Shown here in pieces: positions 26,132 through 31,383 of a stretch of 64,000 bases of DNA. The DNA is from an uncultured Gammaproteobacteria bacterium (GTDB lineage: Bacteria > Pseudomonadota > Gammaproteobacteria > UBA9214). Made by a program: the position numbers and the translations under genes. Within the stretch, counting starts at the first letter, position 1. Each line of letters starts with the position of its first letter. The stretch lies in contig CAVVHS010000008.1 of NCBI GenBank assembly GCA_963748215.1, positions 1-64,000 of the forward strand, given 5' to 3'. The notes under the pieces are model-generated. The model was not told the origin of the DNA and searched no databases. It saw only the letters and a program-made list of their open reading frames with translations.

Positions 26132-26896
26132 TCAGCCGGTTGCAGATTGCTGCTCGGGCAGGCGGAATGCCTGCAGGCCCTGCTGGAACAGGCCGGTGAT
26201 ACTGTCAACCGGGCTCACCTCGTCCAGCGCACTGAGAATCAGCTGGGAGCGGTTCTTGACATGGAATTTTCTGAACAGGGTGGTCAGGTGCGCCTTGACC
26301 CCCTGGTGTGACAGGAAGATGCGTTCGGCGATCTCGCCGGTGGACAAGCCCTGCAGTATCAGCTCGAGCACCTCGAGTTCGCGGGGGGTCAGGCGCTCGC
26401 CCAGTTCCCTGACCCGAGTGTTGATGTCGTTCAGTATCGACTGCTCGGTGATGAAGCGCTGCATGATATGGCGTTCCACCCAGTACTCGCCCCGGCTGAC
26501 TGCATCGAACGCCTTGATGATGTGTTCGCCGGTCATCTTCTCATTGAAATAACCGTGCGCCCCGGCCTGTATCAGACGGTACAGGTAGTCGTCCGACATG
26601 GACTGTCCGAACACCAGCAGGCGCATGCCGGGAAATCCATCCACCATTTCGCGGATGAACGCATCGAAGGGTTCCGGCTTGGAGTTTTCCTGGATCAGCA
26701 GGAAGTCGGGATTGCCGCCGACGAAATGCCTGGTGCAGGGCTCGCCCGGCTCCACGCAGGTGATCGCGCCGGCGGTCGGGCTGGTCTTGAGGATGCGTAC
26801 GATGCCGTCAACAAAGAAATCCTGACGGGCAACAATCAGCGTCTTGTTGCGTGAGGCGCTGTGTACAGCGGCTTTATCCGAGCTGCAGGCAAACAT
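26132..26896 (-). CDS. LuxR/NarL-family regulator with atypical receiver domain
   Basis: LTPRELEVLELILQGLSTGEIAERIFLS HTH; GAHGYF; RBS GGAGGA before MFACSS. Confidence 0.88.
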   Translation of the reverse strand: MFACSSDKAAVHSASRNKTLIVARQDFFVDGIVRILKTSPTAGAITCVEPGEPCTRHFVGGNPDFLLIQENSKPEPFDAFIREMVDGFPGMRLLVFGQSMSDDYLYRLIQAGAHGYFNEKMTGEHIIKAFDAVSRGEYWVERHIMQRFITEQSILNDINTRVRELGERLTPRELEVLELILQGLSTGEIAERIFLSHQGVKAHLTTLFRKFHVKNRSQLILSALDEVSPVDSITGLFQQGLQAFRLPEQQSATG

Positions 26897-27297
26897 ACCT
26901 ATTCCTCCGGCTACCTGGTGATTTAGAAAGTTAGAGGATTTTAATATTATCATTTGTTGTTTGTCAATCCTGCGATTTCTATACTTTTATGTTTTTTTTC
27001 ATGTACTTGTTATTTTTCAGGGCAGACGGCACGCCGTTATCAGCCTGGCATTGCCAGGTATACCCCCGACGTATGTCCAGCCGCATTGCCCCTTGAACAT
27101 AGCCGGCCGTACAGTTGCGGGACGAGCCTGCCTTACCCGGCGTACAGTCAGTGCACGCCAGTCGTGGCCGGACACAAACCAGGGTCAGGTAGCCGACCGC
27201 CGCGCCGGCGGCCTCGCCGGCACAAGCGCGGGGACTGTTGTCGCGAGAACCGCGGCGTTGGCAGGTTGAATCCGGCTACGGGTGCCGGTAACGGAAA

Positions 27298-28029
27298 TCA
27301 CGGTTCGAGAAAACGGCTAACGACCGCCTTGTCGATACCGTCCGTACCGAGTACCGCGATGGCCAGCACATGCTCAGTCGTCGGTTTCTGTACAGCAAAT
27401 TGCCACTGTCCGGCGGCACCGTGCAGCCTGACGGCATCGCACCCGTCCAGGTCGAACCAGACAGACCTGTCCTCATGGGCAAGCCCGGTACCCAGCGCCT
27501 TGCACCACGCCTCGCGCAGCGTCCAGTAGGTGAAGAAGCGTTCGTGATAGACCGCGCTCCCTTCCCGATCGAGCAGGTCTTGCACCTCGGGCCCGGCGAA
27601 CAGCTTCGCGGCAATCGCGCGCATCCGGGGTCGCCTGTCGAGCCTTTCCGCATCGATACCGCAGGCGTCATTCAGCGTCACCACGCATGCTGCCAGGCCG
27701 CTCGTATGGCTCAGGTTGAAACGCAGGTTTACCGGCAACGGGGGCGCCGCGACCTCGGGTCGTCCGTGTGCGCCGCTGACAAAGTGCCAGTCAGCCGGAC
27801 CGACATCGACATAGCAAGACAGTACCCGGCGTACCAGCGCATGCGCGACCAGGAACAGATGGCGGTCCTTTTCGAATCGAAAGCGGCGGTAACGTTCGCG
27901 CTCGTCGTCACCGAGCATGGCAATACAGTCAGCCAGGTATGCGGCATCCGTTACAGCGTCCGGCCTGGCAAGCCAGACATGAACCTCGGATTCCAGCGCA
28001 TCAACATACGAAACATTGCTTGTGGACAC
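27298..28029 (-). CDS. Sfp-type 4'-phosphopantetheinyl transferase
   Basis: GRPE, FNLSHT, CGIDAE, WTLREAWCKALGTG. Confidence 0.93.
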   Translation of the reverse strand: MSTSNVSYVDALESEVHVWLARPDAVTDAAYLADCIAMLGDDERERYRRFRFEKDRHLFLVAHALVRRVLSCYVDVGPADWHFVSGAHGRPEVAAPPLPVNLRFNLSHTSGLAACVVTLNDACGIDAERLDRRPRMRAIAAKLFAGPEVQDLLDREGSAVYHERFFTYWTLREAWCKALGTGLAHEDRSVWFDLDGCDAVRLHGAAGQWQFAVQKPTTEHVLAIAVLGTDGIDKAVVSRFLEP

Positions 28030-28672
28030 AGACGAGACCCTTCAGAGTCCAGGTGCGATTTCCGCTGCGAGAGCCTGCCTGACTTTTCGTGCGGGGCGAC
28101 GACCGGAATCAGTTTACCGGAATGGTCGCGGGATTGTGACATGAAACCCGGGCTGCATGCCCCGACTCGATGGCCGCACAGGACGGCCTCAACAGTACAA
28201 ACAACAATACCCTGCAGGCACAGGGAACTCGCGACTGATATTCAGGTCGTTACGTGAGTGCAGGCGCCGACCCTGATACAGGCCTGTATAGACCTGGCAG
28301 CGAACCCTTGCCGGCGCTGTCGGTTACTGCCGGTTATATTACATGCTCATGATATCAGTATAATTATCGCAACGTTAGCTACCCGAACCGCAACGGCCAG
28401 GCCAGCAAGCAGCGGCGCGATTCCGGCCCGGGCCCGACACCGGGTGCAGATTACAAACCGGCAAGGACGCGACGGTGATCGGCTGCCATCCCCACCAGCC
28501 GGCGTGTTGCTGTGGCTTGTGTGCGCGGAGCAAGGACAAAGATCGCTGTTCAGGACAAGCACGAGCCTGCTCCGTTGACGCTCGCCGCGGGAACCGGGCA
28601 GGACTGCAAGTCAGGCGGCAGTGTAATCCGGGCCATTCTGCCGGGCATCGGGATGTCTATAGATTCCATCTC

Positions 28673-28718: not shown

Positions 28719-29027
28719 ATGAACTGGATAACAGTAACGCCGATCATCCTGGCCCTGTCTGCAACGGTATTTGCCGCGCCGGAACCTGCAGTCGACGCCA
28801 GCAGCCTGTGGAAAGGCTATGTCTGTCGCGTGACCGACTGGCCCGATTGTGAACAGAACAGGAACAACAAGCGCGTCTATCCAGACGAGCGACTGTACCC
28901 GGATAAAAATACCTGTCTCGACAGCTTCGGTCAGTTGTTTGAAAATGACCCGGTGATGTCGGAAAAATACCCGCAAACGAACGATGCCAGCAACAGCTAC
29001 GTCTTCGATTGCGAGGCGGTGCGATAA
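28719..29027 (+). CDS. Small secreted hypothetical protein (4 Cys)
   Basis: RBS GAGAGGA, signal peptide ending VFA, four cysteines. Confidence 0.75.
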   Translation: MNWITVTPIILALSATVFAAPEPAVDASSLWKGYVCRVTDWPDCEQNRNNKRVYPDERLYPDKNTCLDSFGQLFENDPVMSEKYPQTNDASNSYVFDCEAVR

Positions 29028-29275
29028 TCTCACCGCTCATTGCATGCGCGCACTACAGGCGGCCCGGGCAGGTCGCCACCACCTGCCGGCAGGATCAGAC
29101 AGACAGCGCTATCGACACGGGGACAGGACATACATATCCCGGACTGTACGGCGCTCGCCCTGGCAATGACAGGCGCGTAAACATGGGACTGGGCACACTA
29201 CGAAGACCGGCGGGCAGCCCGGCAGGCAGGCGCGCCCTCCTGCCATGGCGTGAATTGAACCTCAGCGGGACAGGC

Positions 29276-29376
29276 AAAAAAAACTGCGGCAACCTTGAGC
29301 AGACCAGGGAGGAGGCAGGAGTCTGCGAGAGGCCGCCGCAAAGCGTGTGAGTTTTCACAGGATTGGCTTTTGACAG
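29276..29376 (-). ncRNA. Predicted small RNA with CCUCCUCCC (anti-Shine-Dalgarno) loop
   Basis: Minus strand: TAGAAT -10 (29382-29387), small TGTGA/TCACA hairpin, long stem TGCGGCGGCC/GGTTGCCGCA plus GCAGAC/GTCTGC around loop TCCTGCCTCCTCCCTG, then T8. Confidence 0.62.
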
Positions 29377-29411
29377 TGAATATTCTAGCGGGCATCAGTC
29401 GCCGGCAGAAT

Positions 29412-29441
29412 GTGACATGGTGCCGCGCGACATTCGGTCGC
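29412..29441. promoter_or_regulatory. Tandem RegA/PrrA/RegR binding boxes
   Basis: GTGACATGGTGCCGC (one mismatch) and GCGACATTCGGTCGC (exact) match the RegR box GNGRCRTTNNGNCGC; located just upstream of regB. Confidence 0.7.
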
Positions 29442-29536
29442 ACCCGGATACGCATGCGGCATACACAGCACGACAACAGCTGTCGCCTGCCGGCACGGGA
29501 CTTGTCGCCTGCTGACCACCCATGCATTATCCGGAT

Positions 29537-30826
29537 ATGAGTTCACAGACCGCAAGGTTCCCCGAGGACATTGCCCGCCGCAATTACTATCGACTGTTCA
29601 TGCTGCGCAATGCCGAGATCGTGCTGATTACGCTCGGCCTGGCGGTCGCGACCGTCTATTTCAAACAGCAGCTGCCGCTGCCGCCATTGCTGGTTACACT
29701 CGCCCTGATCACCAGCCTGAACATCTACACCTGGCTGCGCCTCGCAGCCGGTCAAAGCTACAGCAACAACGAAATCTTCATCCTGATGCTGCTCGACGTG
29801 ACCGGGTTGACCGCCGTCTTCTTCTTTACCGGCGGCGCCTCGAATCCGTTTGTCTGGTTCTACCTGCTGCCGTTGATGATCGCCGCCACCATCCTGCCAC
29901 GAGGTCACACCTGGACCATGGCCGCCGTTACCGTGCTGTGTTACTCGGCCCTGTTCCTGATCGACACGCCCGCCAACGGCGAACACGTCCATCACCATGC
30001 GGAAGGTTTTCAGATGCATGTGTTCGGCATGTGGCTCGGGTTTGTGATGAGTGCCGGTTTCGTTGCCGTGATTATCGTGGGCATGGCGTACAGCCTGCGC
30101 GAGCGCGACCAAAAACTCGCCGAGGCACGCGAGCAGGCGCTGAAGAACGAGCGGCTGGTGGCACTCGGCACACTGGCCGCCGGCACGGCACACGAACTGG
30201 GCACGCCGCTAGGCACCATGGCCATCCTCACCGCGGAATTGCAGCAGGACTATGCCGGCGAGGACAACAGCGGGCTGCAGAGGAAACTCGCTATCCTGCA
30301 GCGCCAGATAGAACGCTGCAAGGAAGCGCTGTCGGGCCTGTCGTCCAGCGTCGGTGCCGGGCGCGCGGAATCCGGCCACCGCATGAAGGTGGCAAGCTAC
30401 CTCGACGCGGTGATCGCGGAATGGCGCGAGCAACATCCCGCGGCGCAGCTGGCCCTGCAGATCGGGGATGGCGCGCCGGACGCCGATATCATCGCGGAAC
30501 GCACGCTGACCCAGGCGCTGATCAACGTGCTCGACAATGCGGCCGACGCCTCGCCTGATCACGTCAAGCTGAACGCCACCTGGACAGAGGCCGAGCTGGC
30601 ACTCAATATATCCGACCGGGGTCCGGGCCTGAGCACAGAGCTGATCGCCCGTCTCGGCAAGCAGCCGATCAGCACCAAGCAGGAAGGGCTCGGCGTCGGG
30701 CTGTTTCTGTCACACGCCACCATCGAGCGACTCGGCGGCAGGCTGTCCATCAGCAACCGTGAACAGGGCGGCACCCTGATCAGCATCGTGCTGCCGTTGC
30801 TGGCAAACCGGGACCACAGGGCATGA
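29537..30826 (+). CDS. regB: RegB/PrrB/ActS-family redox sensor histidine kinase
   Basis: TM region with GGASNPF (GGxxNPF quinone-site motif), AAGTAHELGTPL H-box, QIERCK, DRGPG, GLGVGL. Confidence 0.93.
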   Translation: MSSQTARFPEDIARRNYYRLFMLRNAEIVLITLGLAVATVYFKQQLPLPPLLVTLALITSLNIYTWLRLAAGQSYSNNEIFILMLLDVTGLTAVFFFTGGASNPFVWFYLLPLMIAATILPRGHTWTMAAVTVLCYSALFLIDTPANGEHVHHHAEGFQMHVFGMWLGFVMSAGFVAVIIVGMAYSLRERDQKLAEAREQALKNERLVALGTLAAGTAHELGTPLGTMAILTAELQQDYAGEDNSGLQRKLAILQRQIERCKEALSGLSSSVGAGRAESGHRMKVASYLDAVIAEWREQHPAAQLALQIGDGAPDADIIAERTLTQALINVLDNAADASPDHVKLNATWTEAELALNISDRGPGLSTELIARLGKQPISTKQEGLGVGLFLSHATIERLGGRLSISNREQGGTLISIVLPLLANRDHRA

Positions 30827-31383
30827 ACATGGCAAGCGAACAAACACCATCCGAGCTGCCGGCGCTGCTGCTGGTGGACGACGACGAGGTCTACTGCGAA
30901 GTGCTCGGCGATGCACTGTCCAGACGCGGCTACGCGGTCACCGTCGCCCACAACCTGGCGGATGCCCTGCAACAGGCGCGCGACAACGAGCCCGAGTATG
31001 CCGTGGTCGATTTGCGCATCGGCACCGATTCCGGCCTGGAACTGGTCAGGCAGCTGTCAGCGCTGGACGAGAACACCCGCATCGTGATGCTGACCGGCTA
31101 CGCCAGCGTGGCCACCGCGGTGGAATCCATCAAGCTGGGCGCCGTGCACTATCTCACCAAGCCCGCCACCGCCGACGAAGTGGTCGCCGCCCTGCACCGC
31201 GATGAGGGCGACAGCAGCGTCGCACCGGCAGGAGCGCCGCTGTCCGTCAGGCGCCTGGAATGGGAACACCTGCAAAAGGTTCTGACCGAACACAACGGCA
31301 ACATCTCGGCCGCGGCCCGTGCACTGAACATGCACCGCAGGACGCTGCAGCGCAAACTGGCGAAGAAACCGGTGAAGGAGTAA
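30823..31383 (+). CDS. regA: RegA/PrrA/ActR-family response regulator
   Basis: Receiver domain, LTGYASVATAV, WEHLQKVL...NISAAARALNMHRRTLQRKLAK. Confidence 0.96.
   Translation: MNMASEQTPSELPALLLVDDDEVYCEVLGDALSRRGYAVTVAHNLADALQQARDNEPEYAVVDLRIGTDSGLELVRQLSALDENTRIVMLTGYASVATAVESIKLGAVHYLTKPATADEVVAALHRDEGDSSVAPAGAPLSVRRLEWEHLQKVLTEHNGNISAAARALNMHRRTLQRKLAKKPVKE

Follow-up and report, generated by a model that had tools for sequence, protein, structure and literature searches.

In the 64,000-nucleotide (nt) stretch of DNA analyzed here (the window), which comes from an uncultured gammaproteobacterium, the minus strand from position 29375 to position 29276 carries a short unit that diverges from regB and regA, the genes of a redox-responsive two-component system. 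With a probability of about 0.58, we consider this unit to be the gene of a RegA-activated small RNA (sRNA) of the Hfq type that would act by base pairing as an anti-Shine-Dalgarno (anti-SD) RNA. The anatomy of the unit, its non-coding status, the conservation of its promoter and its linkage to regBA are evident in silico; on this footing, RegA would bind the promoter, the RNA would be expressed, and its action would depend on Hfq and on an anti-SD mechanism. A first-pass annotation of the window had proposed a redox-controlled module of RegBA and an sRNA akin to the cuckoo/CcsR sRNAs of Alphaproteobacteria. The conserved promoter, the linkage to regBA and the non-coding unit stood up to analysis, and the kinship with cuckoo/CcsR did not.

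The promoter of the unit begins with two adjacent boxes of the RegA/RegR type. The distal box, GCGACATTCGGTCGC (29427..29441), is an inverted repeat, GCGAC-N5-GTCGC, which matches a strict regular expression and agrees at 15 of 15 positions with GNGRCRTTNNGNCGC, the RegR consensus as it is quoted in the accessible part of a published study (PMC5506826). The proximal box (29412..29426; GTGACATGGTGCCGC on the plus strand and GCGGCACCATGTCAC on the minus strand) agrees at 14 of 15 positions, the sole mismatch being a G in place of the consensus T at position 8, and it abuts the -35 region. On the minus strand, the box is directly followed by a conserved ATTC, and a weak -35-like hexamer, TTCTGC (29410-29405), starts one base past the box. 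The -10 hexamer, TAGAAT (29387-29382), follows after a spacer of 17 nt and lies exactly 24 nt from the end of the box. Direct reading of the sequence thus reproduced the two box matches at 29412-29441 and the weakly equipped minus-strand promoter that the first-pass annotation had described. The end of the box falls at -37, the center of the proximal box near -44 and that of the distal box near -59, and the class-II-like activator position near -44 fits the poor -35 element. A generic scan for promoters and terminators called neither the promoter nor the terminator of the unit, because its rules require at least four of six matches in the -35 hexamer and a loop of 3-8 nt, whereas the -35 hexamer is poor here and the loop is longer than 8 nt. 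A 175-nt contig of the sediment metatranscriptome run X20 covers 29377-29549, from the boxes and promoter to the start of regB, with six differences, and it may be a carry-over of DNA or an unexpected intergenic transcript.

The boxes are part of a promoter architecture that is conserved well beyond the window. A composite pattern, GYGNC-N5-GNCRC-ATTC-N20-TANNNT, in which the -10 hexamer starts exactly 24 nt past the end of the box, has 30 matches in 19 of the 54 genomes of the order and none in a reversed control; the genome of the window (3.5 Mb; here G000) has two sites. The distance of 24 nt is fixed by construction in these matches and had been noticed earlier in sequences upstream of regB. 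Among 401 sampled Gammaproteobacteria, 61 matches are listed in 43 genomes (40 of 398 once three unpublished genomes are set aside), against four in the reversed control. The tandem-box form, with at most one mismatch, occurs in 43 of the 401 genomes (41 of 399 without unpublished genomes), and its control gave nine matches. Among the 18 class-level loci that match a stricter regular expression, 11 have regB or regA alongside the tandem box. In the order, regA is present in 35 of the 54 genomes, and the tandem box is kept in G061 and G062, the closest relatives of the window genome, and in G022 and G019. A scan of metagenomes with the tandem-box pattern returned five contigs, two identical to the G022 type and three to the G061 type, and no new variants. 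A tandem box with a -10 hexamer at a fixed distance is far beyond chance, and these counts support a genuine RegA-type promoter whose architecture is conserved in the order and in the sampled Gammaproteobacteria. The assignment of the boxes to RegA is based on their match to the published consensus, on the conserved helix-turn-helix (HTH) of RegA and on the persistent association of the boxes with regBA.

The predicted non-coding RNA has a length of approximately 100 nt; its putative start (29375) lies 7 nt past the -10 hexamer, and it ends with a U8 run (29283..29276) that follows an AG and has the appearance of an intrinsic-terminator run and a possible Hfq-binding 3′ end. The sequence folds at -34.3 kcal/mol (z-score, z, of -3.60), and only one of 200 dinucleotide shuffles folds as well. 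Two hairpins are formed. The 5′ hairpin (29346..29359) has 5 base pairs (bp) and the loop AAAA, and all five pairs are invariant in three orthologous sequences. The long terminator-type hairpin (29340..29285) consists of 11 bp, an internal loop and 7 bp, and 18 of 18 pairs are kept in the three sequences. Its 14-nt apical loop, CCUGCCUCCUCCCU (29319..29306), contains the candidate anti-SD seed CCUCCUCCC at 29315..29307. The RNA is present in a single copy in its genome, which also encodes hfq (104 bits). The features of an intrinsically terminated sRNA are therefore present, namely a predicted promoter of its own, the lack of an open reading frame (ORF) and a GC-rich 3′ hairpin with a U-run, and reading and folding agree with the earlier description of a unit of about 100 nt with a long hairpin, a C-rich loop and a U8 end.

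Small units of this kind recur beside regBA. Of the 30 order-level promoters, 17 lead into protein genes, and each of the other 13 precedes a short unit that lacks an ORF and has both a stable hairpin and a T-run. None of these 13 units is farther than 2.5 kb from regB or regA, according to tblastn in a 3-kb locus for 11 of them and to contig coordinates for two (in G021 and G004). Four types of body can be distinguished. Type A is the window's own and is found in G000, G061 and G062. Type B (G019 and G022) has two hairpins and is located downstream of regA. Type C (G042, G044, G045, G001, G065 and G068, with a copy in G047 that has a weaker -10 hexamer) has a 14-16-bp hairpin with a C-rich loop of 20-25 nt, and compensatory changes are seen in two of its 15 pairs, which are located at the base of the stem. 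Type D (G021 and G004) has a loop with UCCUCCCU and resembles type A in the base of the stem and the 3′ end. This likeness, in which the upper stem would have been replaced, was judged by eye and with no covariation counted, because MAFFT did not bring the hairpins of types A and D into register. With the G047 copy included, the folds of the 14 RNAs have z values that range from -2.9 to -6.8. The motif CCUCC or CUCCC occurs in 12 of the 13 units, 24 times in all, and none of 500 shuffle sets reached either figure; in the dinucleotide shuffles, the number of RNAs with a motif averaged 5.1 and never exceeded 10, and the number of motifs averaged 7.3 and never exceeded 16. The unpaired positions of the units are 29-46% C and 0-10% G. 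A search of the 13 loci against Rfam found nothing relevant, the one match being an off-target hit to Xoo8 whose 20.6 bits fall short of the gathering score of 90. Outside the order, one genome (G231) has a tandem box divergent from a regB of 43% identity, and the unit behind this box has a terminator and loops that contain CCUCC, and another (G392) has a tandem box followed by a unit of approximately 70 nt with a C/U-rich stretch and a terminator. Besides the window genome, 12 genomes of the order thus have analogous C-rich units next to regBA, and of the two candidate genomes outside the order one has such a unit next to regB.

Within type A, the promoter and the boxes form the most conserved segment of the region. 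They diverge from those of G061 and G062 by 1.5-4.8%, whereas the RNA diverges by 7-8%, the intergenic DNA just downstream by 16-18%, and the third codon positions of regBA by 8-12%. The stably folded unit downstream of the promoter is therefore more conserved than the intergenic DNA that adjoins it. The hairpin next to regB was expected to be conserved together with its loop, and the first half of this expectation was realized: the hairpin is kept in all three type-A genomes, and the two closest relatives lack CCUCCUCCC in its exact form, their apical loops being CCUACCCCUCCCU (G061) and CCCACCCCUCCU (G062). The motif takes the forms CCUCCUCCC, CCCCUCCC and CCCCUCC in the three species, with CCUCCUCCC private to G000 and only CCUCC common to all. 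A conserved block common to the three genomes reaches approximately 60 nt past the T-run, and a small GC-rich hairpin lies within it. On contig C65 of G061, approximately 215 extra bases are present at window positions 29217-29225, just downstream of the RNA gene.

The identity of the neighboring genes, which the first-pass annotation had given as regB and regA, is supported by their domains, by their best NCBIfam models, by a match of the HTH to structures of the Protein Data Bank (PDB) and by RegB motifs, and these sequence data point to a RegB/RegA (PrrBA, ActSR, RoxSR) two-component system. The gene regB (29522..30826, plus strand), divergent from the RNA, encodes a redox-sensing histidine kinase with the Pfam domains HisKA and HATPase_c and a domain of six transmembrane segments. 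Among NCBIfam models it scores best with ActS/PrrB/RegB, at 229.7 bits, which is under the model's cut-off of 350. The protein contains GGASNPF at residues 104-110, His224 and Cys266, which we take to be the quinone-site heptapeptide, the H-box and the redox cysteine of RegB, respectively. The gene regA (30823..31383, plus strand) encodes a response regulator with a Fis-type HTH (Response_reg and HTH_8), and the NCBIfam model that fits it best, ActR/PrrA/RegA, gives 190.4 bits, under the cut-off of 250. Residues 128-182 of RegA match the DNA-binding domain of PrrA (1umq) with an E-value (E) of 5e-11, and the C-terminus also aligns with 3rqi; the HTH segment ends in NMHRRTLQRKLAKKPV and is identical there to this RegA-type PDB chain as aligned. 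Just upstream of regB, a conserved block, TTGTCG-N17-CATTAT (29502-29537), would put a transcription start near 29535, with the ATG at 29522 inside the -10 region. The start of regB may therefore be the ATG at 29537, in which case its mRNA would be nearly leaderless.

RegB responds to low oxygen or to a reduced quinone pool, and RegA is phosphorylated as a result. According to the mechanism that we propose, the unit would be an independent RNA gene of approximately 100 nt whose poor -35 element relies on an activator at the tandem boxes near -44 and -59, and this activator would most likely be RegA, the product of the divergent regBA operon. Synthesis of the RNA would follow a RegB signal of low oxygen or of a reduced respiratory chain. 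Transcription would end at the intrinsic terminator, and the large apical loop, rich in C and poor in G, would present CCUCC. The U-tail would probably bind Hfq; a dependence on Hfq is suggested by this tail and by the hfq gene of the genome. The loop would then pair with ribosome-binding sites of the GGAGG type in mRNAs and block the initiation of translation. The outcome would be a post-transcriptional arm for RegA, like that of PrrA and PcrZ in Rhodobacter.

Several observations weigh against the proposal that the unit is a RegA-activated anti-SD sRNA gene. The first group concerns conservation. The three type-A sequences were used to build a covariance model (R1); it matches the window at 29277-29375 and, among the 54 genomes, only G000, G061 and G062. 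Two further matches of this model in G020 (E 0.03-0.05) were rejected as a repeated palindromic element without a box. The covariation that the first-pass annotation had proposed to look for was absent, since 23 of 23 pairs are kept in the three orthologues and none is changed on both sides. Two pairs of the long hairpin vary on one side only (G-U/A-U and U-A/U-G), and the structure is unsupported by covariation because the three sequences are too close. The divergence of the RNA is barely below that of the third codon positions of regBA, and the differences among the orthologues are mostly in the loop and the T-run; no part varies more than the apical loop, which is the supposed seed. In addition, the CCUCC/CUCCC statistic overstates independence because the 13 units represent approximately four independent lineages, and the four body types are not relatable by sequence, so that their homology is not established. 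The second group concerns the boxes. Single boxes show no genome-wide enrichment, with 20 strict matches against 16-30 in five Markov simulations, and one box alone is therefore weak evidence. The assignment of the boxes to RegA is made by association, because RegA motifs are described as degenerate, difficult to predict and dissimilar between species, and a motif search is described as having failed in Acidithiobacillus (PMC5506826).

The third group concerns expression and targets. Among the 21 runs listed, the only RNA run has contigs on 29000-29121 and 29377-29549 and not on the body of the RNA, although contigs of this kind cannot show absence. Small RNAs are often lost from such RNA libraries. 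Near ORF starts, 8-mers complementary to the loop numbered 129, against 96 for the reversed control, and no target stands out. The duplex energies with eight co-regulated mRNAs were no better than those of shuffled RNAs (z from -1.4 to +0.9, by a crude method). The 10-mer matches include an ORF with a COX2 domain (C6:320420-320962) and a DUF6866 ORF, along with many repeats and intragenic sites. Two multi-copy repeat families of G000 hold G-rich stretches complementary to the loop of the RNA. The first is approximately 40 nt long and ends in a T-run and a conserved tail, and the second has a conserved G-rich block of approximately 50 nt (examples of the sites are C2:151797, C6:876428, C7:303062 and C9:414348, and C6:568583, C6:661110 and C9:20301). 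These families may be the ends of mobile elements or introns.

The explanation that competes best with an sRNA gene is that the boxes are chiefly an autoregulatory operator of regBA and that the minus-strand transcript is a divergent by-product with no role in trans, exerting at most a cis effect on regB through promoter competition or supercoiling. We consider this unlikely, although it deserves to be kept in mind. A box of the RegA type, GNGNC-N5-GNCNC, occurs within approximately 130 nt upstream of regB in 26 of 34 regBA loci (33 fetched loci and the window), so the boxes may also serve the autoregulation of regBA, and this box mostly faces varied divergent genes, including those for an outer-membrane protein, a phosphopantetheinyl-transferase-like protein and a LysR-type protein. 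The target searches that found none and the variability of the loop in the closest relatives also agree with a by-product. However, G019 and G022 present the two functions apart. In these genomes, a tandem-box promoter homologous to that of the window (BLAST E of 1.5e-5 and 1.9e-8, in a match that spans the boxes, the promoter and the first transcript bases) lies downstream of regA in the convergent orientation and drives only an 83-86-nt RNA of two hairpins ending in U7, whereas regB has kept a separate single box upstream of it. This arrangement indicates that the function of the boxes is not limited to regB and includes the small RNA. Moreover, the loci of the window type have approximately 55 extra nt between the boxes and the conserved block that resembles a regB promoter, the flanking intergenic DNA has diverged about twice as much as the body of the RNA, and unpaired C-rich motifs recur in four body types that are not relatable by sequence, which a functionless by-product would not predict. 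From these comparisons of loci, the boxes probably serve both the RNA and regB in general, and the RNA in particular.

It is far less probable that the hairpin and the T-run only serve to terminate transcription or to insulate regBA from the convergent upstream genes and that the promoter-like elements are functionless. The hairpin and U8 do have the shape of an intrinsic terminator, the generic scan missed the promoter, and the contigs of the RNA run leave out the body of the RNA. However, only on the minus strand is the hairpin followed by the T-run, and a terminator on that strand would have no gene upstream of it to act on, regB being on the plus strand; the nearest plus-strand ORF on the other side ends at 29027, 250 nt away. 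Furthermore, a promoter pattern with 30 matches against none in the control, located in the most conserved segment of the region, would be difficult to reconcile with elements that have no function.

The weakest alternative, to which we attach the least credence, is that the unit is the mRNA of a very small protein, as frames opened by GTG or TTG cross the hairpin (ORFs 29095-29358 and 29198-29527, both minus) and as some sRNAs have dual functions, or the leader or attenuator of a downstream minus-strand gene, and it conflicts with the absence of a codon-phase pattern, with indels that break all frames across the hairpin and with the position of the next coding regions. In a comparison of the window with G061 and G062, which are 85-89% identical to it across the upstream 3 kb, the changes at the three codon positions number 10/10/11 and 8/9/13 for the minus-strand ORF 29095-29358 and 7/9/6 and 5/11/4 for the minus-strand ORF 29109-29246; neither ORF has an excess at the third position, and both contain indels. 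Among the three orthologues, the loop has indels of 1 and 2 nt and the T-run changes in length, and every frame through the hairpin is therefore broken. The statement of the first-pass annotation that no credible ORF occupies this space agrees with both results. Because the unit is followed on the minus-strand side by two plus-strand genes convergent with it (28258-28578 and 28719-29027, both coding by codon phase), it is the leader of nothing; the closest minus-strand gene downstream, 27298-28029, is more than 1.2 kb away.

If the unit is a RegA-activated sRNA gene, its closest functional precedent would be PcrZ of Rhodobacter sphaeroides. According to the accessible part of its published description, PcrZ is a PrrA-dependent, trans-acting sRNA of 136 nt that takes part in an incoherent feed-forward loop, is restricted to R. 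sphaeroides and is located between rhlE2 and a hypothetical gene. A RegA/PrrA-dependent sRNA would thus not be new in principle. Like PcrZ, the window RNA has a promoter with a motif of the PrrA/RegA type, and the same regulatory logic is proposed for both. Unlike PcrZ, it is linked to regBA, belongs to a gammaproteobacterium and is known here from its sequence alone; as far as that description extends, PcrZ is not beside prrBA and no C-rich anti-SD loop is reported for it. The window RNA matches no Rfam family; whether Rfam models PcrZ was not checked, and the two RNAs were not aligned. In titles and abstracts of the literature, with subscription journals and supplements beyond the scope of the search, we found no sRNA linked to RegA or RoxR outside Rhodobacter.

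The seed and the regulatory arm also have counterparts in more distant systems. RNAIII and RsaE of Staphylococcus and RepG of Helicobacter, the last with a C/U-rich terminator loop, are sRNAs that pair through C-rich loops with G-rich leaders or SD sites. Like theirs, the seed of the window RNA is C-rich, G-poor and apical in a terminator loop, and it would pair with sites of the GGAG type; the phyla, regulators and sequences are unrelated, and the likeness would be one of mechanism only. FnrS is an sRNA controlled by FNR and ArcA in enterobacteria and is not encoded beside its regulator. In both cases, a global regulator of the response to redox conditions or oxygen would gain a repressive arm via an sRNA of the Hfq type, but the window RNA differs from FnrS in the family of its regulator and in its sequence.

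The cuckoo/CcsR sRNAs (RSs0680, ar14 and NfeR), to which the first-pass annotation had related the window RNA, occur in Alphaproteobacteria and consist, as described in the accessible part of one report, of two to four adjacent hairpins, each with CCUCCUCCC in its loop (PMC4615179). In the accessible parts of two reports, this loop is read as an anti-SD sequence, and the stems vary while the loop motif persists (PMC8034643, PMC4615179). The same sources place the family under RpoHI/HII in Rhodobacter and the CIN1 subgroup next to a DUF1127 gene (PMC8034643, PMC4615179). The window RNA resembles the family in displaying CCUCCUCCC in a hairpin loop. However, it has a single hairpin with the motif, which is the terminator, and a 5′ hairpin with the loop AAAA; its promoter is of the RegA type; its two orthologues do not keep CCUCCUCCC; and the 10 flanking ORFs searched against Pfam comprise regB, regA, a LuxR-type gene and ORFs without a family, and none is DUF1127. 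Rfam gives no match at the gathering score in the window, and at E ≤ 10 on 28900-29700 it gives only a spurious 10-bit match to a model of a eukaryotic long noncoding RNA. We therefore reject membership in the cuckoo/CcsR family on account of the single motif hairpin, the unkept motif, the absence of a DUF1127 neighbor and the lack of an Rfam match, and the link appears to be one of analogy.

RegBA-type systems are global redox regulators, and an sRNA arm outside Rhodobacter would extend the known cases. The promoter rule that emerges here is sharp: a tandem GCGAC-N5-GTCRC, an ATTC and a -10 hexamer at 24 nt pick out a small regulon in uncultured and sampled Gammaproteobacteria, together with the recurrent small RNAs. 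If it holds true, RegA regulons would become directly predictable. It is possible, although we regard it as rather doubtful, that sRNAs linked to regBA, with RegA boxes and a CCUCC/CUCCC seed, represent a general and as yet unrecognized post-transcriptional arm of the RegBA/RoxSR redox regulon in Gammaproteobacteria. According to this tentative generalization from the sequence comparisons, the body of the RNA would have been replaced or have diverged past recognition at least four times in one family while the tandem-box promoter with its rigid 24-nt spacing, the regBA address and the C-rich seed persisted. If so, the units would show in nature how sRNAs are replaced while their promoter and genomic address stay fixed.

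The same promoter also precedes protein genes. The second site in G000, outside the window, is located at C1:42994-43053 (in C1:42994-46500; loci L109 and L132) and comprises a tandem box with TATATT 24 nt on; it precedes an ORF without a family, a gene of the ExbB family and a TonB-dependent receptor (Plug and barrel; Pfam), and a promoter of this type with this set of genes is also found in G061, G062 and G002. In loci L094-L123 (order) and L134-L200 (class sample), the other downstream genes, labeled by reading of their translations only, form a set that recurs across Gammaproteobacteria and includes TonB-dependent receptor genes, genes of outer-membrane proteins that resemble CopB and have His-rich N-termini, and the gene of a secreted protein in which a Cys-rich segment, YVGLCCGKCGGNMPMN, is conserved. 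The gene of this secreted protein is often directly divergent from regB. G000 itself has no detectable copies of the two outer-membrane or secreted genes that, in its relatives, follow the box promoters divergent from regB or other box promoters (tblastn with the first 103 and 119 residues, E ≤ 1e-3). This set of genes suggests that RegBA may be connected with functions that involve metals or the outer membrane.

The comparison of codon phase with G061 and G062 also bears on the annotation of the neighboring region. It identifies the minus-strand ORF 27298-28029 as a real gene and the overlapping plus-strand ORF 27370-28257 as not real. The plus-strand ORFs 28258-28578 and 28719-29027, which look coding, match no Pfam or NCBIfam family. 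The gene of a LuxR/GerE-type regulator at 26132-26953 on the minus strand is coding, with changes of 11/7/38 at the three codon positions relative to G061.

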